IMG/VR virus record: IMGVR_UViG_3300031455_000001
Span: 64,001-128,000 of that record
Strand: one strand, 5' to 3'
DNA: 64,000 nucleotides
Origin: a virus
Part shown: piece after piece, positions 7,560-52,977 of the stretch
Position numbering within the stretch: position 1 is the first letter of the stretch
How the letters are laid out: each line of letters starts with the position of its first letter
Notes under the pieces: generated by a model
What the model saw: the letters and a program-made list of their open reading frames with translations, nothing else
What the model was told of the DNA's origin: nothing
Database searches by the model: none
Position numbers and translations under genes: made by a program

Positions 7560-8633
7560 TCATCCCTTCGTCCCATATGTCTTCTCGATGTTTTCAACAG
7601 TCACGATGCCTTTTAAATTATGATAAGAAGCAATATTAAATCTGTCTGCAATTATTTTTAATTCTACAATTGAAATTTCTGGTTTACCATCTGTTATAAA
7701 TTCTCTTGCCTGATGAATCATACCACTACGTTGAATATACTTTGCAGTTAGGTTGTCAATTTTCAAACTATCTGCAATTGTTTGTATTCTTCTATATACT
7801 ACGAATTTATCCACAGGTGCATTATGATTAATTGTCTTTGTTATGGACGCTCTGACTACATATTCATTCTTGACTAAGTCGTTAAAATTTCTGATATTAG
7901 ATATTTCTTCCATATCTCCATTTTTCTTAACGTATATACTCTTTTCAATAGCTCCTGCAATCAATGATAGCGTTCTGTCATCCACTTTTACAATTCTTTC
8001 AGTAAATCTAAGAGGCTTGCCATTGTCATCGTATTTTAAAGTGTTGAATAAGTGTAATTCCTTTTTATCCCAATCAATATCATTCTTAGTTAAGTTTCTT
8101 ATTTCACTCATTTGCTTACCACCAACACCCATAAATAGCAGACGGATAATTACTGAATCTTGATAATTTACACATGATTCTTCATATCTTATCAAGTCTT
8201 CATTTGTAAAATAAATTTCACTATTAGTTAGATATTTTTGGAAATCATTGGGTTTTAAGTTATAAAGTGGGTTAAACATTACATAGCCACTTTGAACACT
8301 CCAGTTGATATAACTTGAAATTATTCTGCTATAACTTTCAATTGTGTTTCGGTTATTCGCTTTAAATCCAAAAAGAATTACTTCAATTTCCTCTAATGTA
8401 AATTCTGAGAGGTCTTTCTCCAATAAAGACTCATTGGCATATGTTAAGCCAAATATTCTCAAGTAGCTTCTAGATGTTTCCTCTGATATGACATTAGAAC
8501 CGATCATGTAGCTTATAAAGTCCATTTTTCTTTCTTCTCTGTACAAAGGGTTGTTTTTCTCTACAATTGTCATCGTCACTATAACCACTCTCCTGCTTTG
8601 CGTTTTTTTATTGCCTAAATATATTATACCCAT
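7560..8633 (-). CDS. Tyrosine-recombinase-fold protein, probably a catalytically inactive repressor (YopR/MrpR/SroF-like)
   Basis: Int-like core; catalytic R box reads GVGGKQMSEI and HxxR box reads YIQRSG; true start probably GTG at 8579. Confidence 0.7.
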   Translation of the reverse strand: MGIIYLGNKKTQSRRVVIVTMTIVEKNNPLYREERKMDFISYMIGSNVISEETSRSYLRIFGLTYANESLLEKDLSEFTLEEIEVILFGFKANNRNTIESYSRIISSYINWSVQSGYVMFNPLYNLKPNDFQKYLTNSEIYFTNEDLIRYEESCVNYQDSVIIRLLFMGVGGKQMSEIRNLTKNDIDWDKKELHLFNTLKYDDNGKPLRFTERIVKVDDRTLSLIAGAIEKSIYVKKNGDMEEISNIRNFNDLVKNEYVVRASITKTINHNAPVDKFVVYRRIQTIADSLKIDNLTAKYIQRSGMIHQAREFITDGKPEISIVELKIIADRFNIASYHNLKGIVTVENIEKTYGTKG

Positions 8634-10295: not shown

Positions 10296-10512
10296 ATTGC
10301 TCATCTTTTCTTCTATTCCAACTTGCTAAATGATAATTTACATAATGATCAAAAGATGGTATTGGGATAGCATTGCTTTCTCTGAGACATTCAACATATA
10401 ATAAATACCTGTGTCCGAAGTGGTTTAAAAGTTCGTCTGTAAGAATTATTTGAGTCATTGCCATCATCTCCTTTGTTGTGTTAAGTATATCATTATTTTT
10501 TGCATTAGTCAA
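10288..10512 (-). CDS. Hypothetical protein
   Basis: ORF in co-oriented run. Confidence 0.6.
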   Translation of the reverse strand: MTNAKNNDILNTTKEMMAMTQIILTDELLNHFGHRYLLYVECLRESNAIPIPSFDHYVNYHLASWNRRKDEQYG

Positions 10513-10666: not shown

Positions 10667-10718
10667 TAATCTTCACCTCACTTATTTAATATTATGGACA
10701 TTGTAGAAAAGTAACATT

Positions 10719-10997
10719 TTATCCAATTAGTTTTTGTACTACTTCTTGATGTGTAACTATCGTCAGTTCTACAATCGCCACAGGCTCATCACAACATAAT
10801 ATATAATTCCAACTACCATTACCTGTTACCATACTTCTAGCTTCGTGTTCTGCTTTTGATTTTGATTCAAATAGATGTGCCTGTGTAGGAGTTGGCGTAG
10901 AGTAAACATCCACATCATTACTTCCAACTTGCTCCATATATAAATATTGTTCATTTTCATCTATCAGTGCAAATCCTTTAATTTCCATTAATACCAC
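10719..10997 (-). CDS. Hypothetical protein
   Basis: RBS; bounded by TAAAA-N6-TTTTA-type elements. Confidence 0.7.
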   Translation of the reverse strand: MVLMEIKGFALIDENEQYLYMEQVGSNDVDVYSTPTPTQAHLFESKSKAEHEARSMVTGNGSWNYILCCDEPVAIVELTIVTHQEVVQKLIG

Positions 10998-11018
10998 TCC
11001 TTTTATAAAACGAGACTT

Positions 11019-11201
11019 TTATAAAGTTAATTCAAGCTTTCGTTTTTCAATCCAAAATTCGTTTCCATCATGAATATCATAAACCCTAACCATTTCTCCA
11101 TCTGTTTCAGATATTTTGACTTCATCAATGTGATAATATAAAGAGTTTTCACGCTCAAATTCTTTTCTAATTCTAAATGTTGGCTTCATAAATATCACCA
11201 C
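11019..11201 (-). CDS. Hypothetical protein
   Basis: RBS; bounded by TAAAA-N6-TTTTA elements. Confidence 0.65.
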   Translation of the reverse strand: MVIFMKPTFRIRKEFERENSLYYHIDEVKISETDGEMVRVYDIHDGNEFWIEKRKLELTL

Positions 11202-11235
11202 CTGTTTAAAACAAGATTTTTATCCAATAGGCACT

Positions 11236-11406
11236 TTATTGTTCATATATATAAACATCATTATTACAACTGCAACCAATAGTTATTCCATCACTCTGTA
11301 CATGGCTGAATGTAAATCCACTATCTTTATAATCTCTATTTGTAGTGTCATCTCTTACTGTAACTTCTCTCCCACAATCATTACAGATTATTTTGAACCC
11401 TTCCAT
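11236..11406 (-). CDS. Small Zn-ribbon protein (56 aa)
   Basis: Hand-translated MEGFKIICNDCG...GCSC; GGGAG RBS. Confidence 0.6.
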   Translation of the reverse strand: MEGFKIICNDCGREVTVRDDTTNRDYKDSGFTFSHVQSDGITIGCSCNNDVYIYEQ

Positions 11407-11494
11407 ATTATCATCTCCCTGTATAAAATTAACTTTTTAACCAATTCTTCATCTATGGGTTTATTGTATAACAGTTTAGTCGAGCTATTTTATT

Positions 11495-11611
11495 TTAATT
11501 AGTATTATTTCTTAGTTTCTGTATCTCTTTCACCATGTAATGATTAAAGCTACACTGACTTGTAAACGCAAGTATGACTCCAATAGTTAATCCAACCATA
11601 AATAAGACCAT
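11495..11611 (-). CDS. Small membrane peptide (38 aa)
   Basis: MVLFMVGLTIGVILAF...; AGGAG RBS. Confidence 0.5.
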   Translation of the reverse strand: MVLFMVGLTIGVILAFTSQCSFNHYMVKEIQKLRNNTN

Positions 11612-11626
11612 CCTATATCTCTCCTT

Positions 11627-11728
11627 TTATCTTGGTTTTCTCTTACCACATTCCTTGCACTTATAATCTGATGTCCTTGTCATACTCCAAACCCAATAAT
11701 GCCCTAATAAAATACACTTTAATTTCAT
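11627..11728 (-). CDS. Small Zn-binding phage peptide (DUF1660-like, 33 aa)
   Basis: MKLKCILLGHYW...CKECG; GGAGG RBS. Confidence 0.6.
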   Translation of the reverse strand: MKLKCILLGHYWVWSMTRTSDYKCKECGKRKPR

Positions 11729-11781
11729 GTATTTACTCCCTCCTATTTAGTTCAACTGCACTATATGTTCGAACCGTTTAG

Positions 11782-12066
11782 CTACTCGTATCCAATAATT
11801 TCGGTTCTTGTTCTTGTTTTCGGTTTAAGTTCCTTTGCTGTATAACCTTCACCATCGCAAACTTCGCATTTGACTTCTTTGTGCTTTATGTCTTGAACCC
11901 ATTCGCTATGTAGCAATCCTTGTGGGTATGTGTTATAACTAACAAACATTGCGCCTAAGCCTTTGCATTTCGGGCAAGCGAAAGGTTTGTTTTTCAAATC
12001 AATGATTTCACTTATTTTTAAATCTCCGTATCGATCCATTAACTGTTTTAAATCATGAATTTTCAT
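11782..12066 (-). CDS. Zn-finger protein (CxxCxGxG x2)
   Basis: CPKCKGLG...CEVCDGEG. Confidence 0.7.
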   Translation of the reverse strand: MKIHDLKQLMDRYGDLKISEIIDLKNKPFACPKCKGLGAMFVSYNTYPQGLLHSEWVQDIKHKEVKCEVCDGEGYTAKELKPKTRTRTEIIGYE

Positions 12067-12117
12067 TTTATCCCTCCTGTTTTATTCTACTGTCCGACAG
12101 TTTATTCGAACGGTTTG

Positions 12118-12372
12118 TTAAATTCGTTTATTCCATGATGTAATTAATTCTTCTTCACTGTCAAAAAGAAAAGTCCCAACTATCCCACCATCCTCATAAT
12201 GGTTTGCAATAGGGCAATCTTTATTCTCTTTATTGTCGTGTACAATAGAATAAGACAAGCCACTCCAAGGGTTTAACTTATAATCTTCGTCCCTTAAATT
12301 TCCTTCATCGTCACTAACTTGAATTTTTGCTTTACCGCCACAAAAAGGACATGGTTTTAAATTTTCCATCAT
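12118..12372 (-). CDS. Lar-family restriction-alleviation-like protein
   Basis: LKPCPFCGGKA N-terminus, WNKR C-terminus. Confidence 0.7.
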   Translation of the reverse strand: MMENLKPCPFCGGKAKIQVSDDEGNLRDEDYKLNPWSGLSYSIVHDNKENKDCPIANHYEDGGIVGTFLFDSEEELITSWNKRI

Positions 12373-12385
12373 ATTTCACTCTCTT

Positions 12386-12685
12386 TCATTGTTTATTCGA
12401 ACAGTGAATGAAATCACTTACCTCTTTTATCTCTTTCACACAATGATTTACATCATACTCGATTCCTTCAAAAGTATTTGTTCGTTCAAATTCTGATTCG
12501 ATAATTGCTAAGAAGTAATAGTCCTCACTCTTGCCAGTTTTAATGTTATCAATTAAGGTGTGATCTAAATCGCAAAATATTTCTGTGCCTTTATGATCAT
12601 TGTCAACTTGAGTGAGGATTTCAATATCTTTTTCACCTTTTTCATCAAGATATATATGCCCTGATACTATTGCTTTGAACTCCAT
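12386..12685 (-). CDS. Acidic hypothetical protein
   Basis: Cassette ORF with GGAGG RBS. Confidence 0.75.
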   Translation of the reverse strand: MEFKAIVSGHIYLDEKGEKDIEILTQVDNDHKGTEIFCDLDHTLIDNIKTGKSEDYYFLAIIESEFERTNTFEGIEYDVNHCVKEIKEVSDFIHCSNKQ

Positions 12686-12734
12686 TTATATCTCCTCCTA
12701 TTTGGTTCAACTGTCAGGCTATTTATTCGGACGG

Positions 12735-12959
12735 TTAATCTATTTCAATATCTTTCGTTGCCTCTTTCACCTTATCTTCAAGAGAATGAAGTTCTTCATA
12801 TAGATCATCTAATGTATTTTCTATTGCTTTTTCAAACTTTCTCCAGGTCACACCATATACAGGTTTACTATTCACTTTTAAATCCAAAAACCAATTATTA
12901 ATTTTCTCTGTTTCGCTTTTTAGTCTTTGAACTTTCTCTATTGCCTTGTAAAGTTCCAT
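12735..12959 (-). CDS. Coiled-coil hypothetical protein
   Basis: Cassette ORF. Confidence 0.75.
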   Translation of the reverse strand: MELYKAIEKVQRLKSETEKINNWFLDLKVNSKPVYGVTWRKFEKAIENTLDDLYEELHSLEDKVKEATKDIEID

Positions 12960-13010
12960 TTCTTATCTCCTTTCTACCGTTTGGTTCAACTGTCGGACTA
13001 TTAGTTCTAA

Positions 13011-13262
13011 CTAATCTTCAAACTTGCTGTAAGTCTTTTCAAAAATATCTGGTTTACAAGGGTAAAACTCACCGTTTACACCTTTGATAATATAGTCGCC
13101 AATATTAGCTGTCATAAGTCCCTTTAAAGTTTGTATGACAATAAAACCTTGTGATGGGTATGTTTCATACAAATCTTCAATAAATTCTTCTAAATCAACC
13201 CAATTGCTTCCTGTAAATTCAATGGCTTCGATTACTACAGCTTTCTTTTTAAATTTAGGCAT
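13011..13262 (-). CDS. Small conserved phage protein (KKxVVIEA...GDYIIKG..GEFYPCKPDIF family), candidate anti-defence protein
   Basis: Recognisable family signature. Confidence 0.75.
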   Translation of the reverse strand: MPKFKKKAVVIEAIEFTGSNWVDLEEFIEDLYETYPSQGFIVIQTLKGLMTANIGDYIIKGVNGEFYPCKPDIFEKTYSKFED

Positions 13263-13311
13263 CGTAATTCCCTCCTTTTTGGTTCAAGTGTGCGATAGTT
13301 TATTCGAACGG

Positions 13312-13539
13312 CTAATCTTCATATATATCAAATTCATCTGCGTGATCTTCTAAAAAATCATTCAAATGATCCTCTAAACGCTCTGAAAATCTAATTAGAA
13401 AATCATCATTGTTTGTTACAGATAATACGATCTCCTCGATTTTTTCTTGTGGGACTTCAAAAGCTAAATTCCCTTGATTATTTTGCAATCCATCCTTAAC
13501 AATAGTTTCCATAGCTTCTCTTAAATTCATTTTTAACAC
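13312..13539 (-). CDS. Acidic hypothetical protein
   Basis: Cassette ORF, D/E-rich C-terminus. Confidence 0.7.
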   Translation of the reverse strand: MLKMNLREAMETIVKDGLQNNQGNLAFEVPQEKIEEIVLSVTNNDDFLIRFSERLEDHLNDFLEDHADEFDIYED

Positions 13540-13560
13540 TCCTTATTTTTATTGTTTGGT

Positions 13561-13662
13561 TCAATTGCAAAGTTGTGTATTATTTTTCAATAGGGTTTGC
13601 ACTATAGCTTTTTCTTTGCTACTGGTTGAAAGTTTACCTTCTACAAGAAAAACAATATCCAT
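13561..13662 (-). CDS. 33-aa ORF, possibly 3'-truncated at a junction element
   Basis: GGAGG RBS; TGA stop lies inside the TTGAACCAAAC half-site. Confidence 0.45.
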   Translation of the reverse strand: MDIVFLVEGKLSTSSKEKAIVQTLLKNNTQLCN

Positions 13663-13793
13663 TCAGAACCTCCTCTCTAATATTTATTTTCCACTCGAAC
13701 GGTGTTTCAATAATCAACTGTATTTATTGATACTTTTATAAATATTATTATATCATTATTTATTGTCTTTGTATATAATTATTTTACTTTATA

Positions 13794-13819
13794 TTAGCAA
13801 TAATTCGGGTGTTCTGTTA
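13794..13819 (+). repeat. 26-bp TTAGCAATAA-N8-TTCTGTTA element
   Basis: Identical to the 5476 copy. Confidence 0.85.
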
Positions 13820-13939
13820 TATGTTTTAATTTTGCTACACTCTATGATGCTAAGAAAGATTTGTGGCATATGTGTCCACTTCTATACCTTGTTCATTATT
13901 CTTTGTGTGAAATTGTTGAGCATCGAATCGCTCAACAAT

Positions 13940-14125
13940 TTATGAGTCTTGCTGTTTTTTGTGATTAACTTCTTTTAAGATTTCTTTAGTTGCATCGACA
14001 TAGCCTTTATTAAGTAATTCCTCACAAATAATTAAAACTGTTTTTAAATCCTTCATTTTAACCATCTCCTTTTCTCTGTTTTTTAAAGAATTTTTACCCA
14101 AATGATTTTCTTGCATCAGCTCCAT
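13940..14125 (-). CDS. Hypothetical protein (true start probably near 14065)
   Basis: AAGGAG RBS before MVKMKD. Confidence 0.55.
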   Translation of the reverse strand: MELMQENHLGKNSLKNREKEMVKMKDLKTVLIICEELLNKGYVDATKEILKEVNHKKQQDS

Positions 14126-14324
14126 TATCGTATATAGAACATCCCCAGAAACTCATATTTTCTTCATTAAAATGTCTTGCAAAATTTTGATCTTTCTTAG
14201 CAAGATTTCTACAAGCATCTTTTAAGTCTATTCCTACACAATGACCTAAAAGGACAGCACCGCTACTTTGACCTGTGGCTCTATAACCTTCGCACCAGAT
14301 ATCATAATCTTTCATGTGAGCCAC
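14094..14324 (-). CDS. Hypothetical phage protein
   Basis: ORF in co-oriented run. Confidence 0.7.
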   Translation of the reverse strand: MAHMKDYDIWCEGYRATGQSSGAVLLGHCVGIDLKDACRNLAKKDQNFARHFNEENMSFWGCSIYDNGADARKSFG

Positions 14325-14534
14325 CTACATTTCTTCATGATTACTTTCAATTTCCACATAGTTTTCGTATTCAATCACTCTGATAGCCTCACCATATGTT
14401 TTTGTCATGCCGCCAATTTCAACTACTTTGTTTTTCGGTAATTTTTTCAACTCTGCAATTAATTCCTCTACAGTCATTTTATTTTCCCCCTTTGATTCTA
14501 ATTCGTGTTGTGCTTTTCTACTCATCTTCACCAA
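14325..14534 (-). CDS. Hypothetical phage protein
   Basis: MTVEELIAELKKLP common phage N-terminus. Confidence 0.65.
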   Translation of the reverse strand: MVKMSRKAQHELESKGENKMTVEELIAELKKLPKNKVVEIGGMTKTYGEAIRVIEYENYVEIESNHEEM

Positions 14535-14639
14535 TTACACTCAACAGAAAATCACTTAAACATTGCTCTTTTTATGCAAGATTTCAGAAATCCTACCTAC
14601 CGAAACGACACCTCCTTTTACTCTCCCCATCTACTCGAA

Positions 14640-14846
14640 CTACGCATTGAGTCTTTTTCCATTAGGTTCTCCAAGAAGCCTATTTGCTTTGCAATATAAA
14701 AAGTATTGGTCATTGTGTGAAATACGCATATTTTCATTGGTACTTCTGGATTCAAGATATACGCTATAATAAGTTTTGACAAAACCTTCAAGTTCTGAAA
14801 TCCTATCTTCCAATTCTTCAGACATAAAAATCCTCCTTTCGCACAT
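14640..14846 (-). CDS. Hypothetical protein
   Basis: Cassette ORF; stop inside half-site. Confidence 0.65.
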   Translation of the reverse strand: MCERRIFMSEELEDRISELEGFVKTYYSVYLESRSTNENMRISHNDQYFLYCKANRLLGEPNGKRLNA

Positions 14847-14899
14847 TAGGTTTTCAGTTCAGTATTTGGTTCCACTGACCGACCGTTTGATCGAACGGC

Positions 14900-15028
14900 T
14901 CACTTCATACATTTTTCACAATGTTTAAATGGATAGCCTTTCGATAATTCCACAACTCCGCATTTAGGGCAATGATCTTTGTTTAGCCAATCATACATTT
15001 CTTTTTCTTCATCTGATTGTTTAGTCAA
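14900..15028 (-). CDS. Small Zn-finger protein (42 aa)
   Basis: TTG start after GGAGG; CPKC...CEKC. Confidence 0.6.
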   Translation of the reverse strand: MTKQSDEEKEMYDWLNKDHCPKCGVVELSKGYPFKHCEKCMK

Positions 15029-15052
15029 TTCCATCCCTCCTATTTGTTCGTA

Positions 15053-15226
15053 CTACGCTGTATGATACTTATACTCTTTGATTCTTTCGTGGCTAATTTG
15101 GTGATAGTAGCTAACTTTTATCATTCCTTTACATTGATTACATTTGTATATTTCAGCTATATAACCAACTTGAAGCATATCATCAACGCATTTTGTATCG
15201 TTATTTTTGCATTTAATACAAAACAT
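15053..15226 (-). CDS. Small Zn-finger protein (57 aa)
   Basis: MFCIKC...CNQC; stop TAG inside half-site. Confidence 0.6.
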   Translation of the reverse strand: MFCIKCKNNDTKCVDDMLQVGYIAEIYKCNQCKGMIKVSYYHQISHERIKEYKYHTA

Positions 15227-15301
15227 CTATTTCCCCTCCTAGTTTGTTTCAACAGTCCTGCTGTTTATTCGTACTATGTGACATGTAATTTTGGTTATGC
15301 C

Positions 15302-15520
15302 CTACTTTATTTCCTTTAATATTGGACGAACACCTATCGCAATACTCACGCCATTCATAGCATAAAAGATGGTTTTAGCCGAATAATATTCGTGGTTTTT
15401 TCCTATTTTTGCAGCTTTATTTAGTTCTTCCAATATATCTTTATATTCTCGTTTAAGTGCTTCTACATCACTTTCACTTAAATTGCAATAGTCCTTAATT
15501 TCAAATTCTAGCTCGTACAT
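15302..15520 (-). CDS. Hypothetical protein
   Basis: GAGGAG RBS. Confidence 0.7.
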   Translation of the reverse strand: MYELEFEIKDYCNLSESDVEALKREYKDILEELNKAAKIGKNHEYYSAKTIFYAMNGVSIAIGVRPILKEIK

Positions 15521-15560
15521 ATTGATAATCTCCTCTTTTGTAATTGTACCGCACCATTTA

Positions 15561-15926
15561 TTAATAGGATGAAATTTTTGTTCCCGTGTTCAAGAAGATC
15601 CCCTTAACCTTTTTCCCTTGCATTAGCTCAAATTCAGCCACTTCATATCCCATTTCTAATGCCTTTAGAACCATTTCATCATAAATGTAAGCGTGAGCAC
15701 GTTCTTTTCCATGTCCGCAACAACTGAGTCCCATTGTCGCTAATCCACTTGCTAAGAGTGAGGACAACTCTTTTGCAATACAATCATCTACACAAAAGCT
15801 CTCTTTCTCGTAAAGATGCTGGATAGAAGGATGAAAATTCTCTCTTTTCATGATTACTCCACCACTATATCTTGTTCCTAAACACATATTACCCCTCCTA
15901 TATCGTGCGGTTAGATCACGACGCAA
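15561..15926 (-). CDS. SCCGHG-motif phage protein (start probably near 15850)
   Basis: VDDCIA...T..SCCGHG signature. Confidence 0.6.
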   Translation of the reverse strand: MRRDLTARYRRGNMCLGTRYSGGVIMKRENFHPSIQHLYEKESFCVDDCIAKELSSLLASGLATMGLSCCGHGKERAHAYIYDEMVLKALEMGYEVAEFELMQGKKVKGIFLNTGTKISSY

Positions 15927-15941
15927 TTTATTCTAACGGAA

Positions 15942-16076
15942 TTAATAAACTTCACCAGTATCAGACTCTTGTTCAGCGCATGGCATACACCACATTTGAC
16001 CTTCCTCGTCCATGATAAAGTCGTAATTAAATTTGTCGGTTGGTAGTGTTTCTTTTTTGCAAAAAATACATTCCTT
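15942..16076 (-). pseudogene. 5'-truncated Zn-finger gene starting right at a junction element
   Basis: KECIFC...WCMPCAEQ...* frame lacks an ATG/GTG/TTG start and RBS upstream of the first CxxC. Confidence 0.6.
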
Positions 16077-16098
16077 AACCGACAGTTTACTCGAACGG

Positions 16099-16308
16099 TT
16101 AATTTTCTATAGCAGCCCAACCCGAATCTAAATAGTTCCCTTCCCAATCTTCATACATTTCTTGAATAGCTTTTTCCAGTTCCTCTTCACTTTGGGAATT
16201 TAAATCCTCTTGTGTGAATCCTAGTTCTTCCAACGTTGAAATTTCTTCTTCTACCTCTCTACCTAATGCTACAGCGAACCTTATTTTAGTCTTTAATGTA
16301 TATTTCAT
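16099..16308 (-). CDS. Acidic hypothetical protein
   Basis: E/D-rich ORF. Confidence 0.7.
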   Translation of the reverse strand: MKYTLKTKIRFAVALGREVEEEISTLEELGFTQEDLNSQSEEELEKAIQEMYEDWEGNYLDSGWAAIEN

Positions 16309-16449
16309 TTACTGTGTCTCCTTCTCGATAATTGCTTTTATTTCTTTGTAACCTTGTTCAATACCCTCTCTTTGTTCATCCTCTAAATCACCAGTAATGT
16401 AATGGTCAAAAAGGTGGTTCAAAATATCAATAAGGTCTTTTTTCTCCAT
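16309..16449 (-). CDS. Small hypothetical protein (46 aa)
   Basis: Hand-translated MEKKDLIDIL...; RBS after half-site. Confidence 0.6.
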   Translation of the reverse strand: MEKKDLIDILNHLFDHYITGDLEDEQREGIEQGYKEIKAIIEKETQ

Positions 16450-16553
16450 CTCAATCCTCTCCTATTTGGTTCTATAGCTCGGTTCGTTAAATGGAGTATC
16501 CGATTTGTAATTCAACCCCAACAACCATCTTGCTTTCTATGCAGTTGAACAGA

Positions 16554-16757
16554 TCAACAATGCTTGGTTTTTATAATTTGCTTCCTCGATTGAATCTCTT
16601 CACTGTGAAATGGATTGTAGTCTTCTGAGTTATGGTATAGAACTGTTGTTTCTAGAGTCGTTCGGTAGTCACCTTCATAAATATTTACTTCAATTGCCAG
16701 TTCATTGTCGCGAATCATTTCAACGATAGTTTGTTTAATTAGCTTTTTATTTAACAT
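16554..16757 (-). CDS. Hypothetical protein
   Basis: AAGGTG RBS. Confidence 0.65.
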   Translation of the reverse strand: MLNKKLIKQTIVEMIRDNELAIEVNIYEGDYRTTLETTVLYHNSEDYNPFHSEEIQSRKQIIKTKHC

Positions 16758-17717: not shown

Positions 17718-17845
17718 AAAACATCAACCTCTCTTTATTTAATTTTTTTATCCTTTTCTATAAGTTAATTATATCATAATTTTTATCTTTCGTCAAGCGA
17801 TAATTGATTAAAAAAATAATTATATTTTGTTTTTGTGGCGATTGT

Positions 17846-19036: not shown

Positions 19037-19540
19037 TTAATTATTTTTGATTTCTTCAATAAAATCATTTATGTCGTCATGTATATTACTGAAGGTATTA
19101 TTGTTATCATAAGATTCAGATATGTTTCTAATTCCGCTTTTTATATAAGACATATCTAATGAGTCAATATCTAAATCACATTCAGAGAGAAATGCATTCA
19201 TTTTATCAACCATTATATTAAAAACCATTATATCTAGATTATCATAAAGAGATCGTGTGTAGTATTGGTAGTAGCCAGCTTTCATGAAGTCTTCAATATT
19301 AGTGCAACCTTCTGTCAAACCTTCGCTAACAGCTTCTTCTATATACTCTCTGATATCTTTTGCGTTCTCCCACAGATCATGGGTGTAAATGGGTATGAAA
19401 TTGTCTGCAATTTCTGAGATTGCATCACAAAGGTAGACATCATCATTGTAGTCTGAAACAAAAGAATTTAAAGCGTCTTCCTCATTTTTTAAATTTTGTA
19501 AAAGCTTATAATCATCTTTAACAATAATCTCTGTTGTCAT
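19037..19540 (-). CDS. Ocr-like acidic DNA-mimic (anti-restriction) protein
   Basis: LCDAISEIADNFIPIYTHDLW resembles T7 Ocr [21 protein letters not shown]; very acidic; ATG at 19540 after AGGGAG. Confidence 0.7.
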   Translation of the reverse strand: MTTEIIVKDDYKLLQNLKNEEDALNSFVSDYNDDVYLCDAISEIADNFIPIYTHDLWENAKDIREYIEEAVSEGLTEGCTNIEDFMKAGYYQYYTRSLYDNLDIMVFNIMVDKMNAFLSECDLDIDSLDMSYIKSGIRNISESYDNNNTFSNIHDDINDFIEEIKNN

Positions 19541-19594
19541 AAACAAGCACTCCCTTATGTTATGATTTATTACGTCTGACAAACCATTGGGCAA

Positions 19595-23232: not shown

Positions 23233-23649
23233 TCATTTCCACTCATTCTCCATGATTCTATTTTGTAATTGATCAACCATTCCTTCAATCTCTTTTTTTA
23301 CATAGAAAACATCTTTATAAGTTCCTCCGCTTAATATTCCTAATCCCATATTTGCCATGCTTGGAACTAGATCATCAAAATGAGCTGTATCAAATCCAAT
23401 AACATAGTCATCATCACTGAAATATTCCTTCATTTCATCAAAAACATTCTCGGCTTCTACAAAATAAGTTACTCCACCATGCACACCAACACTATGCTCA
23501 TCAAAATCTTCAATTTTTTTCATTCCTACATATCCGCATAGATGCCCTAGTGATTGATGTCTATAGATAGCGCACTTGTGTCCTTTGTATTCAAAATAAA
23601 CTTCATCAGGTTCATCTTTCCATACCATCACTAATTCATTTTCACTCAT
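23233..23649 (-). CDS. Conserved phage protein (CGYV...HGGxTY...GFDxAH family)
   Basis: Motifs visible. Confidence 0.75.
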   Translation of the reverse strand: MSENELVMVWKDEPDEVYFEYKGHKCAIYRHQSLGHLCGYVGMKKIEDFDEHSVGVHGGVTYFVEAENVFDEMKEYFSDDDYVIGFDTAHFDDLVPSMANMGLGILSGGTYKDVFYVKKEIEGMVDQLQNRIMENEWK

Positions 23650-23880
23650 TTAAACCACTCCTTTTATAATATCAGCTTTTTATATAGACTGTTTAATGAT
23701 TTCAATTGCTTTCTTTTGAGTTATTTTTTGTACTGCTCCAATACTTGAAATATAGAATTTGCCACGATAGTAATTTACGCCATGATAATTAGTACCTTCA
23801 TCACTTTTCATCTTTTCAATAATTGCTTTGATTTGCTTATCCATATTATCGCCCTCCGTTATTTTGATAAAAGTCGCATT

Positions 23881-24099
23881 TTATTTATTTTCTTCCAACC
23901 ATTCAATTTTATCTATTGTATAATCTTCAAGACTGCAACTTTCCTCTCCTTCTCCCTCATTTATTTCTACGTATTCGTCATATTGTTCTGCAACCGTTTG
24001 AATAAATTTATCATCCTTTTTCAACTCAATGACAATCGCATCTTGCACTAAGTTATCCATAATTTTTTTCACATTATTTAATGTAGTCATAATTATCAT
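23881..24099 (-). CDS. Acidic hypothetical protein, paralog A
   Basis: Paralog of 24844-25062. Confidence 0.75.
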   Translation of the reverse strand: MIIMTTLNNVKKIMDNLVQDAIVIELKKDDKFIQTVAEQYDEYVEINEGEGEESCSLEDYTIDKIEWLEENK

Positions 24100-24320
24100 C
24101 CTCCATTTTTAAATTAAGTATAGAATATCACCATTTTATACATTTTTAACTACAATATAAGTGTAATAATATCCATCATCTGATTGCGTTTGTTCGACAA
24201 CCTTATAATTCAATTGCTCTAACACAACTTCAACAGTATAATAATTTTCAACACGACAGATTACTTTTTCTCTCTTTTCCATATTATCATCTCCTTTTTA
24301 TTTTGTAGAAAATGAACATT

Positions 24321-24539
24321 TTATGCATATTTGAAATCAATATTGCCATCATTCACAACAGGTTTATAGAAGTTCCCAGATGTCGATTCGAATAATAATC
24401 CTTCATGATTTTCTACTTGTTTTAGATTTCCATATTCAATCCTAGTCAAAAGTAACTTATCATTGTTTTCAAGAGTTATTTTGAAGTGCCCTGCATTTTC
24501 AACAAATTCACTATTTTTAGTTTTTACCACTTTAATCAT
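24321..24539 (-). CDS. Hypothetical protein
   Basis: Bounded by TAAAA-N6-TTTTA-type elements. Confidence 0.7.
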   Translation of the reverse strand: MIKVVKTKNSEFVENAGHFKITLENNDKLLLTRIEYGNLKQVENHEGLLFESTSGNFYKPVVNDGNIDFKYA

Positions 24540-24843
24540 CTCCCTGTATAAAATTAGAATATTATCAATTAATACTCTTCTCTGTATTCTGATACAGAGA
24601 GAACTCTGTCTCTATCGTCATGTTTGTAAACCATCTTATTCGCTTGCTTCCACGCTTCTGCCTCATTTCTTGCGCTTACCACCTCGGCATAATCTTTACT
24701 GTTAGCGCTTTGATATTTGATTAGATAGGATTTCATTTTGGTTTCCTCCTCTTTTTATCTTATATTAAGTATACACTAAATTAATTCTTTTGTCAAAAGA
24801 TTTTATCATTAATTTTTTAATAAAAAACTATTAACTTGCTTGC

Positions 24844-33557: not shown

Positions 33558-33573
33558 TGTTTCACGTGAAACA
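33558..33573. other. parS site
   Basis: TGTTTCACGTGAAACA, perfect palindrome. Confidence 0.85.
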
Positions 33574-51936: not shown

Positions 51937-52977
51937 TTACATAACCCCTAGCTTTTGCAACAACTTAATCTGCGTTGTTCTATCTACGTTCTTAATTAGC
52001 CCTAAAAGGTCGTCAGTTGACAGTCGATCAAACTCTTCCACGGGTATTTTAGTATTAATATCAACTGTTACAAGCTCCTCTAGATTCTTCTTAGCCATAT
52101 AATCATTCAGAGTAGTAGAGACATTATTGTGATCTCCATGTTGTTGCATGGCTTTAATATCTCCGCCTGTGATAATATTTACTTCGTTGATTGATGCCTT
52201 CTTGATTGAGTGGAAAACAATCTTCCTGTTACCAAAGTCAATGTTATCTCTGATATACTTCATCATCTTAGATATTGTTTTATCCGTCAACTCGAATATA
52301 TTATCGCTATCTTTAGTTCTAGCCTCCTTGTAGCTCATCAAAGCTTTATACAGGTCGTTTGAGATCTTCTTATGTGACCACTTATTACCCTTCCCTAAAA
52401 CCTTCATAAACCACACACCATCGATGTTTATAATCTGATCCCATTTTGCTGTGCGAATAGAATCCTTACGGAAGGCGGTAGCATAAGCAACTCTCACCAA
52501 TAGTGATTTCTCCAAGCCTTTACGAGTGGTTGACACCAGATTAATTATGGCTAATATTTCTTCATGTGTGAGCGTATCATAGCTCTCAACATCATGTTTA
52601 CCATAGCTCTCAACATCGAACCAAGCTCTTCTAACTTTGAATCCATCATCCTCAAACCTTTTGTATAACTCCCTCAGTGATGAAAATGTATTATTTACAG
52701 TCCCACCTTTGTACTGCTCCTTTAACGCAACTTGATACGATCCAATTTGGCTAGGAGTAAATATTAAATCATCTGGGTTTAAATCCTTTAACTCCTTACC
52801 TCTCATTGTTTTAAAAAAATCACGTATTGATCTTTCATATGTTCCTCTTGTGTTCTCACTATTCTGCGCCTTGCGTGAAAGGTAGGTATGAATTGTTGCA
52901 TAAACATTTTCTCCTTCAGTTTTCGGATTCAATTGTCTCACTGCACCTAGTTTAGCCATTACATCAATCCTCCTCAA
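51937..52977 (-). CDS. Tyrosine recombinase
   Basis: TAFR, GKGNK, FHSIKK, GDH, DY catalytic set. Confidence 0.85.
   Translation of the reverse strand: MRRIDVMAKLGAVRQLNPKTEGENVYATIHTYLSRKAQNSENTRGTYERSIRDFFKTMRGKELKDLNPDDLIFTPSQIGSYQVALKEQYKGGTVNNTFSSLRELYKRFEDDGFKVRRAWFDVESYGKHDVESYDTLTHEEILAIINLVSTTRKGLEKSLLVRVAYATAFRKDSIRTAKWDQIINIDGVWFMKVLGKGNKWSHKKISNDLYKALMSYKEARTKDSDNIFELTDKTISKMMKYIRDNIDFGNRKIVFHSIKKASINEVNIITGGDIKAMQQHGDHNNVSTTLNDYMAKKNLEELVTVDINTKIPVEEFDRLSTDDLLGLIKNVDRTTQIKLLQKLGVM

Follow-up and report, generated by a model that had tools for sequence, protein, structure and literature searches.

A strand-specific two-part repeat between stop codon and ribosome-binding site separates small early genes in a relative of the giant Bacillus siphoviruses

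The stretch of viral DNA described here, referred to as the window, comprises 64,000 nucleotides (positions 64001-128000) of a single 155,345-bp virus record, IMGVR_UViG_3300031455_000001 (G+C 33.7%), and was present in one soil-metagenome DNA run, which may be its source; no RNA run is listed as containing it. The closest relatives belong to the Tsamsa group of giant Bacillus siphoviruses (Tsamsa, Izhevsk, FADO, PJN02 and the Thrax phages), with proteins ≈54-78% identical. Searches with the MrpR protein and with a 938-aa protein found no nearer relative, the top matches being ≈62% and ≈78% identical, respectively. From 16 kb to 109 kb of the genome, nearly all genes are carried on the minus strand. 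These include an array of small open reading frames (ORFs) in a hypervariable early region upstream of the MrpR/SroF gene (Table 1; positions are those of the window unless marked as genome). Approximately 15 of these small early genes are separated by a ≈35-nt two-part repeat, located between the stop codon of one gene and the ribosome-binding site of the next, which we call the type-1 element. As the preliminary description of this DNA had it, the array consists of unrelated single genes in one orientation with a standard junction between them: no paralogues were found among the flanked genes within the array.

Read in the sense of the mRNA, the consensus junction consists of a stop codon, CCGTTCGAATAAAC, TGTCGGA, CAGTTGAACCAAAT, AGGAGG, 7-9 nt and ATG, and the intercistronic gaps at full junctions are 49-53 nt long. 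One asymmetric 14-nt unit, C-N-G-T-T-(C)-G-A-A-Y-M-A-A-A, makes up both halves, in the same orientation. The upstream (A) unit follows the stop codon, while the downstream (B) unit in most copies ends 0-1 nt before AGGAGG, the Shine-Dalgarno (SD) sequence. The stop codon abuts or sits inside the upstream unit in seven of the eight doublets, in keeping with the earlier remark that stops are often part of the site. When 26 units were aligned with one gap, T4, G7 and A8 were invariant (26/26) and G3, A12 and A13 nearly so, and the adjoining positions varied freely. The outer positions of the right arm are much less conserved than the left arm, and most B units have the start of the SD there instead. 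Units also occur alone, filling a 24-nt junction (15042-15055), immediately 5' of the SD (genome 41177 and 40891) or right behind the stop (16085-16098). Each half had previously been described as an inverted repeat, ACNGTT-N6-AACNGT. This formula describes the idealised consensus, but it is exact in only four units and within one mismatch in 7 of ≈25, and the direct-repeat pattern is better conserved. At two mismatches it was observed 83 times, compared to a genome background of ≈64 per strand.

The 155,345-bp genome was scanned with a position weight matrix (PWM), which yielded eight doublets, all on the minus (coding) strand, seven of them in the window and one outside. The two units are offset by 21 nt in seven copies and by 18 nt in the remaining one. 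No doublets were obtained in 100 dinucleotide shuffles. Single A-type units with a PWM score of at least 15 numbered 13 on the minus strand and one on the plus strand, against a shuffle mean of 0.56 for both strands together; the corresponding numbers for B-type units were 10, one and 1.33. Besides the doublets, there are ≈13 single units, and at least one unit is found at 15 of the 20 gene junctions between 11.4 and 16.6 kb. Sequence inspection and a repeat search confirmed on the minus strand all seven doublets listed earlier, six of which clustered as one 36-nt repeat family with 64-81% identity. The half sites listed with them were more uneven: those at 12391, 13554, 15042, 16085 and 16464 are good and those at 13687 and 14627 partial, whereas only weak sites at background level, which deviate at 2-3 positions, are present at ≈11471 and, inverted, at ≈16541. 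The full doublet outside the window (genome 57870-57891) is identical to the 12113 copy at 27 of its first 29 nt; it is located 18 kb away and has other neighbour genes. Together with the unrelated genes that flank the copies in the array, this near-identical copy argues that the element is portable. Further copies outside the window are found at genome 60432, 41423, 41177 and 40891.

Table 1. Type-1 units, type-2 linkers and other features of the array and its surroundings. Positions refer to the window unless marked as genome.
Feature	Position	Strand	Remarks
Array of ≈24 small ORFs (33-121 aa)	11236-16757	minus	Co-oriented, mutually unrelated; many CxxC mini-proteins
Type-1 doublet	11745-11776	minus	18-nt unit offset (4-nt spacer); between ORF 11782-12066 and ORF 11627-11728
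Type-1 doublet	12079-12113	minus	A unit 12100-12113, B unit 12079-12092; downstream of Lar-like gene
Type-1 doublet	12700-12734	minus	Stop TAA immediately before A unit; B unit abuts AGGAGG
Type-1 doublet	12979-13013	minus	Degenerate A unit begins with stop TAG; B unit with full AACGGT right arm
Type-1 doublet	13277-13311	minus
Type-1 doublet	14864-14898	minus	SD ≈40 nt further downstream
Type-1 doublet	15242-15276	minus
Single A unit	12391-12404	minus	Within last codons of ORF 12386-12685
Single B unit	13554-13567	minus	Stop TGA of 33-aa ORF inside
Partial A unit	13687-13700	minus	In leader, downstream of internal promoter
Partial unit	14627-14640	minus	Opens with stop TAG
Single unit	15042-15055	minus	Fills 24-nt junction; includes stop TAG, abuts AGGAGG
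Single A unit	15926-15939	minus	After stop of Zn-ribbon ORF; added to the earlier list
Single A unit	16085-16098	minus	Right after stop TAA; exact ACNGTT-N6-AACNGT
Single B-like unit	16464-16477	minus	Abuts SD
Type-2 linker, TGTTAC variant	10702-10727	minus	Common to L081, L082
Type-2 linker TAAAA-GTCTCG-TTTTAT + SD	10989-11021	minus	Exact string of at least 15 nt common to L081, L082
Type-2 linker	11203-11228	minus
Type-2 linker	11420-11445	minus
Promoter, downstream of array	10484-10512	minus	Same stereotyped family
Promoter inside array, sigma-A-type, TG-extended -10	13747-13775	minus	Stereotyped promoter family
Promoter, upstream of array	17768-17796	minus	Same stereotyped family
Hairpin, 10-bp stem	13908-13939	minus	Follows ORF 13940-14056 and precedes internal promoter; resembles a terminator by eye; no call in terminator scan
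Lar-like gene	12118-12372	minus	Pfam PF14354, 31.1 bits vs cut-off 28.6; phrog_599
Very widespread phage family gene	13011-13262	minus	phrog_419; DNA matches up to 82% in Staphylococcus phages
MrpR/SroF (YopR)-family protein	7560-8633	minus	Pfam PF22822/PF22823; PDB 8a0a, 8bj6, 9rd5
Xer-like tyrosine recombinase	51937-52977	minus	Core gene of all Tsamsa-like relatives (60-65% identity there)
Third Xer-like tyrosine recombinase, outside window	genome 139821-140825 (L220:1084-2088)		57-59% identical in all Tsamsa-like relatives

The phrog_419 gene is bracketed by two doublets (13262-13320 and 12959-13020). Both have an identical 9-nt sequence in front of them, GAAGATTAG (Glu-Asp-stop), and the repeat thus reaches into the last codons of both upstream genes. 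The Zn-ribbon ORF (CxxC...CxxC, 15911-16090) lacks an ATG or GTG in frame behind an SD, and its frame runs through an A unit. An ATG behind an SD at 16071 is one base out of this frame, just before runs of T6 and A6. This oddity may reflect a frameshift, an unusual start or an error in the assembly.

We considered the possibility that the element acts through RNA structure, either as a site of processing, comparable to those at which RNase III cuts between the early genes of T7, or as a regulatory hairpin that masks the SD. Its strand specificity and intercistronic position would suit such a role, and the central AACTGTC-G-GACAGTT can pair as a 5-7-bp stem in two or three copies. However, the stems are broken in most copies, and the fold energies of the eight junctions were at the level of shuffled sequences (z-scores -1.6 to +1.7, mean near 0), with no stable fold. 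The consensus fold reached only -3.1 kcal/mol, with no compensatory changes. In a two-stem dyad model of the attC-like or long-hairpin kind, 68.7% of the cells were paired within copies, compared to 67.6% when the partners were shuffled among copies; slid registers of the same model paired 17-54% of cells. Thus, the consensus is symmetric but the pairing is not maintained in the individual copies, which speaks against both a hairpin in the RNA and a recombination site folded from a single strand, and leaves recognition by sequence. We therefore consider a structural RNA element very unlikely. Several other candidates were also rejected. CsrA-type GGA loops would need a GGA that is found in just three of the eight spacers; avoidance of TTCGAA as a restriction site was not apparent (36 observed, 34 expected); an internal promoter within the B unit was not conserved; and likenesses to the Spo0A box, the LexA (Cheo) box and the tRNA T-loop, noted by eye only, did not fit the arrangement.

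The array is not a single transcription unit. Three promoters of one stereotyped family are found at ≈17.8, 13.76 and 10.5 kb, and a hairpin follows ORF 13940-14056 (Table 1), so that the type-1 array comprises more than one transcription unit. Approximately 35 promoters in the genome have this form, with TTGACA, a conserved AT-rich spacer (GCAATAAATAATG) and an extended -10; examples in the window are at 2836, 10501, 13764, 17785, 21179, 21894, 42684, 45010 and 54116. The spacer is a candidate box for a repressor of the MrpR/SroF family. Beside the internal promoter, the contigs of the soil run all break at 13792-13827 (30-36 nt), a stretch that is repeated exactly elsewhere in the genome, which accounts for the breaks. 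As to the cargo, the earlier account of Lar-like, Zn-finger and acidic genes holds, while the label of candidate anti-defence genes is borne out, by family membership, just for the Lar-like gene and for an Ocr-like anti-restriction gene (19037-19594; phrog_2568, E = 6e-31) ≈2.5 kb upstream of the array.

The type-1 element is so far unique to this genome among the collections searched. Exact and degenerate patterns gave either no matches or 76 single chance matches in IMG/VR, and 42 single matches in unrelated taxa among GTDB genomes. In JGI metagenome contigs there were 82 single matches, and a PWM rescan found several units in none of these contigs. A full copy compared by blastn with 50,697 phage records gave nothing at E = 10. 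Pattern scans of four whole IMG/VR records of relatives gave matches at control level, and a PWM scan did not find the element in Tsamsa, in FADO or in three metagenomic relatives, where it covered the arrays that lie upstream of the MrpR gene. In Bacillus phage Shbh1 (Herelleviridae, L169-L176), a homologue of the acidic gene 13312-13530 lies among junctions that have their own repeated leader, CAGTAGAAGGAAAC, in ≈5 copies; 12 of 14 positions of this leader match the type-1 B unit variant CAGTAGAACCAAAC.

The preliminary description had interpreted the array as integron-like, with core sites of a tyrosine recombinase possibly served by the protein encoded at 51937-52977. Site-specific recombination at sites of the Xer/pdif, loxP or integron attC kind, by which single-gene cassettes are captured and shuffled, would be consistent with the cassette-like arrangement of unrelated genes and with an idealised consensus that reads arm-core-arm, twice. 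The string GTTGAAC fits the integron GTTRRRY core by eye, and three proteins with the tyrosine-recombinase fold are encoded in the genome. However, the halves are direct rather than inverted copies of an asymmetric unit, and their 5-6-bp arms are poorly kept. A dif site, in comparison, has an 11-6-11 layout with inverted arms, and the arms of dif, lox and FRT sites are 11-13 bp long. An attC site is an imperfect palindrome of 57-141 nt, conserved in structure rather than in sequence; the type-1 element is ≈35 nt long, pairs at the level of shuffled partners and maintains no hairpin.

None of the three genes with this fold adjoins the array. The best score with an integron-integrase model was 23.4 bits against a cut-off of 265, and the XerA/integron model gave 61.7 and 82.1 against 220; the proteins at 51937-52977 and genome 139821-140825 score as distant Xer-like. 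All three are among the core genes of relatives whose examined parts do not contain the element, so that no recombinase is specific to it, and the assignment to the recombinase at 51937-52977 is not upheld. The characterised members of the MrpR/SroF family, from SPbeta and phi3T, are lytic-cycle repressors rather than active recombinases (PMC10516654; bioRxiv 10.1101/2025.11.27.690993). SPbeta MrpR has kept the recombinase fold, lost recombinase function and binds SPBRE boxes in promoter regions (PMC10516654). The phi3T protein, in which the catalytic tyrosine is missing, recognises an AT-rich box of 26 bp as a monomer (bioRxiv 10.1101/2025.11.27.690993). Among the contigs of the soil run no rearranged form was seen, but their joints are contig breaks at the repeated 30-mer and at the distant doublet copy and thus uninformative, and contigs cannot show rare circles. 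The tyrosine-recombinase/integron reading fails on each defining feature that is open to testing, and we regard recombination at such core sites as highly unlikely. It is also very doubtful that the element is a mobile single-gene cassette site, forming an integron-like anti-defence platform through some unrecognised recombination activity (a host Xer or a phage protein with the recombinase fold) or through a DNA- or RNA-binding factor that targets recombination.

The arrays on both sides of the type-1 block, at 10667-11445 and, in a looser form, at 23600-24600, use a different junction. This type-2 linker has the form (TGA)TAAAA-N6-TTTTAT-SD, with the loop variants GTCTCG, TGTTAC, ACTCAA, ATTAAA, TCTTAA and GTTTAC; no description of it was found in the literature searched. 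Type-2 linkers also occur in five other loci (L077, L078, L081, L082 and L083). Exact type-2 strings are shared between phages whose proteins are 54-62% identical, with unrelated flanking genes; for example, the slot bounded by GTCTCG and then TGTTAC is occupied by a different gene in each of the window, L081 and L082. The arrays upstream of MrpR in six phages (this phage, Tsamsa, FADO and three metagenomic relatives) have almost no genes in common. Comparison between these phages gave 39 junction pairs with an exact match of at least 15 nt, and the flanking genes are non-homologous in 37 of the 39. When Tsamsa (L077) was compared with Thrax4 (L167) and Izhevsk (L168), which are ≈94% identical, most ends of replacements and indels were found no more than ≈20 nt away from a stop codon, an SD or a start, many of them within 5 nt. 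Several replacement ends lie inside type-2 linkers or at promoters (-35 boxes), and two others fall within a gene, 27 and 40 nt in. In the Tsamsa-like family, the junction modules are thus conserved while single genes are exchanged between them. The earlier expectation that genes are swapped exactly at junction modules is borne out for the other modules of this wider family (type-2 linkers, promoters and SD-start strings). At the break-points, the homology amounts to 15-40 nt of plain sequence identity, a substrate that general recombination would use. The phage has recombination genes of its own, among them one for an AAA_24 protein whose Tsamsa counterpart is annotated as Sak4-like; AAA_24 proteins and RecJ-like genes are present in Tsamsa-like phages.

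Taken together, we suggest that the type-1 element may be a lineage-specific, sequence-recognised stop-linker-SD module that also provides a patch of homology for cassette exchange, an interpretation in which our confidence is middling. The basic module would be the lone 14-nt unit directly 5' of a strong SD (AGGAGG). The full form would add a second unit 21 nt upstream, right after the preceding stop, giving the order stop, unit, N7, unit, SD and start within a gap of ≈50 nt. Two functions can be proposed for it. The first would be that of an expression signal for accessory early genes, read by sequence rather than by fold, either as an unstructured translation leader or as an operator for a factor that acts on the mRNA. 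The strict orientation, the abutment to the SD and the position-specific conservation without structure point to a signal that is read by sequence, most simply on the mRNA near the ribosome-binding site. The second would be that of a passive crossover patch for general (homologous) recombination, through which single genes could be exchanged as cassettes. The 35-45 nt that recur beside unrelated genes would serve as such a patch, and by analogy with the type-2 modules and with the junction repeats of T4-type phages the type-1 element would be used in the same way.

Several observations weigh against this interpretation. The collections searched contain no second genome with the type-1 element, so that cassette exchange at its copies is just an analogy. 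It is local, being present at ≈20 of ≈180 minus-strand junctions, and is therefore not a general translation signal. The interpretation does not account for the stop-proximal copy. Finally, the dyad-symmetric consensus and the phasing by two helical turns would also suit a protein that binds DNA.

The last point leads to the most serious rival, namely that the units are double-stranded DNA operators of the stoperator kind, at which a repressor of phage or host origin (the MrpR/SroF homologue or another protein) bound to many co-oriented intergenic sites would silence the array or block its transcription. The symmetric consensus and two-turn phasing keep this possibility in contention: four units match ACNGTT-N6-AACNGT exactly, pairing is far lower in the slid controls, the 21-bp offset corresponds to two helical turns, and the conservation is position-specific without covariation. 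Other DNA sites of this genome likewise occupy gaps between stop codon and SD, namely parS sequences of the host type (TGTTTCACGTGAAACA), which fill such gaps at genome ≈40650, 41675 and 41840, outside the window, and at ≈33558-33573 in the window; isolated type-1 units are found close to two of the parS clusters. Repressors of the MrpR/SroF family read long asymmetric boxes at many dispersed sites (PMC10516654; bioRxiv 10.1101/2025.11.27.690993), and stoperators are asymmetric, intergenic and co-oriented (PMC9283540; PMC3203893). However, the known MrpR/SroF boxes are AT-rich and lie in promoters, for which the conserved spacer of the ≈35 stereotyped promoters is a better candidate, whereas the type-1 units do not lie at promoters. 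The unit is asymmetric, its right arm being much less conserved than the left, and exact abutment to the SD would be unexpected for a DNA site. An operator function is thus possible, if rather less than probable.

We also considered whether the element might be a functionless relic, left by local duplication of junctions together with their genes or imported as a block from another lineage and now drifting. It is indeed mostly confined to one 5-kb block flanked by arrays with type-2 junctions, and its AGGAGG type of SD differs from the GGAGTGAT type of the neighbouring arrays. However, the flanked genes are not paralogous, invariant positions stand beside freely varying ones across 26 units, and copies are found at three other loci. 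The block has no compositional anomaly, and no foreign composition was seen. A relic is therefore an unlikely explanation. For the type-1 element, an expression signal or an operator is the likelier mechanism, and the analysis gave no support to a recombinase site.

Small early gene arrays in large phages are the places with the fastest turnover of anti-defence and host-takeover genes. Next to the type-2 linkers, the type-1 element constitutes a second, so far unique, dialect of gene junction, which is unusually strict in its geometry and conserved in a position-specific manner. Should it be read by a factor, this would represent a new regulatory layer for accessory genes in phages of Gram-positive hosts, and would offer a handle on cassette boundaries by which new counter-defence genes could be found in metagenomes.

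Among described systems, integrons share with the array the co-oriented series of single genes, a repeated site after each ORF and a GTTRRRY-like string. The type-1 array differs in having no IntI, no attI and no maintained hairpin, in an element half the length of the smallest attC, and in conserving sequence rather than structure. Like Xer dif/pdif sites, the units are short and bracket small gene modules. In contrast to those sites, they have arms of at most 6 bp, the right one far less conserved, and are arranged as direct repeats, and the Xer-like genes of the phage are not specific to them.

The SPBRE/Phi3TRE boxes of MrpR (SroF, YopR) are AT-rich, with a 15-bp motif in a 26-bp box, and lie in promoter regions (PMC10516654; bioRxiv 10.1101/2025.11.27.690993). 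The likeness consists in a repeated asymmetric element in a phage with an MrpR-family protein of the tyrosine-recombinase fold, and such a protein could explain why the type-1 units look like recombinase sites without recombination taking place. The units differ from these boxes in containing CCG/TCGA, in their intercistronic position and in having no likeness to the phi3T box; the stereotyped promoters of this genome fit MrpR boxes better. The stoperators of Cluster A mycobacteriophages (L5 gp71) are 13-bp sites, found also at the early promoter, whose asymmetric sequence is read by a monomeric repressor (PMC9283540; PMC3203893). They resemble the type-1 units in being many, asymmetric, located in short intergenic gaps and oriented with transcription. 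The stoperators differ in having a known binder, whereas the type-1 units form tandem pairs fixed to stop codon and SD. No type-1 unit overlaps any of the three array promoters, and a partial unit lies ≈50 nt downstream of one.

The promoter early stem-loops (PeSLs) of T4-type phages combine a sigma-70 promoter with a terminator stem-loop and are found in hyperplastic regions, where they separate small genes that are non-essential (Arbiol et al. 2010, PMC2839356; Comeau et al. 2014, PMC4122927). As with PeSLs, a short conserved regulatory module is repeated between small genes, with unrelated genes between the copies. Recombination between PeSL copies explains the gain, loss and replacement of genes, a pattern found here for the type-2 linkers, promoters and SD-start strings of the family. 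The type-1 units differ in having no called promoter, terminator or stable hairpin, and in lying inside operons, between stop codon and SD.

The closest described parallel in layout is provided by the start-associated sequences (SAS) and extended start-associated sequences (ESAS) of Cluster K mycobacteriophages. The SAS has a 13-bp consensus, GGGATAGGAGCCC, that includes the SD, while an inverted repeat of 17 bp with a spacer of 4-13 bp makes up the ESAS (Pope et al. 2011, PMC3203893). SAS sites are of unknown function and accompany unrelated gene families, and about half of them have the two-part upstream extension (PMC3203893). Like these sites, the type-1 element is asymmetric, occurs in one orientation beside starts at the ribosome-binding site, and lies in the non-structural part of the genome; in both, the upstream stop codon can sit inside the repeat. 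It differs in its unrelated sequence, in an SD that is adjacent rather than embedded, in a second part that is a direct copy at a fixed 21 nt, and in a host that is probably a Bacillus-type organism. The type-1 repeat is thus real, statistically solid and so far unique, and belongs among the known gene-junction repeats of phages.

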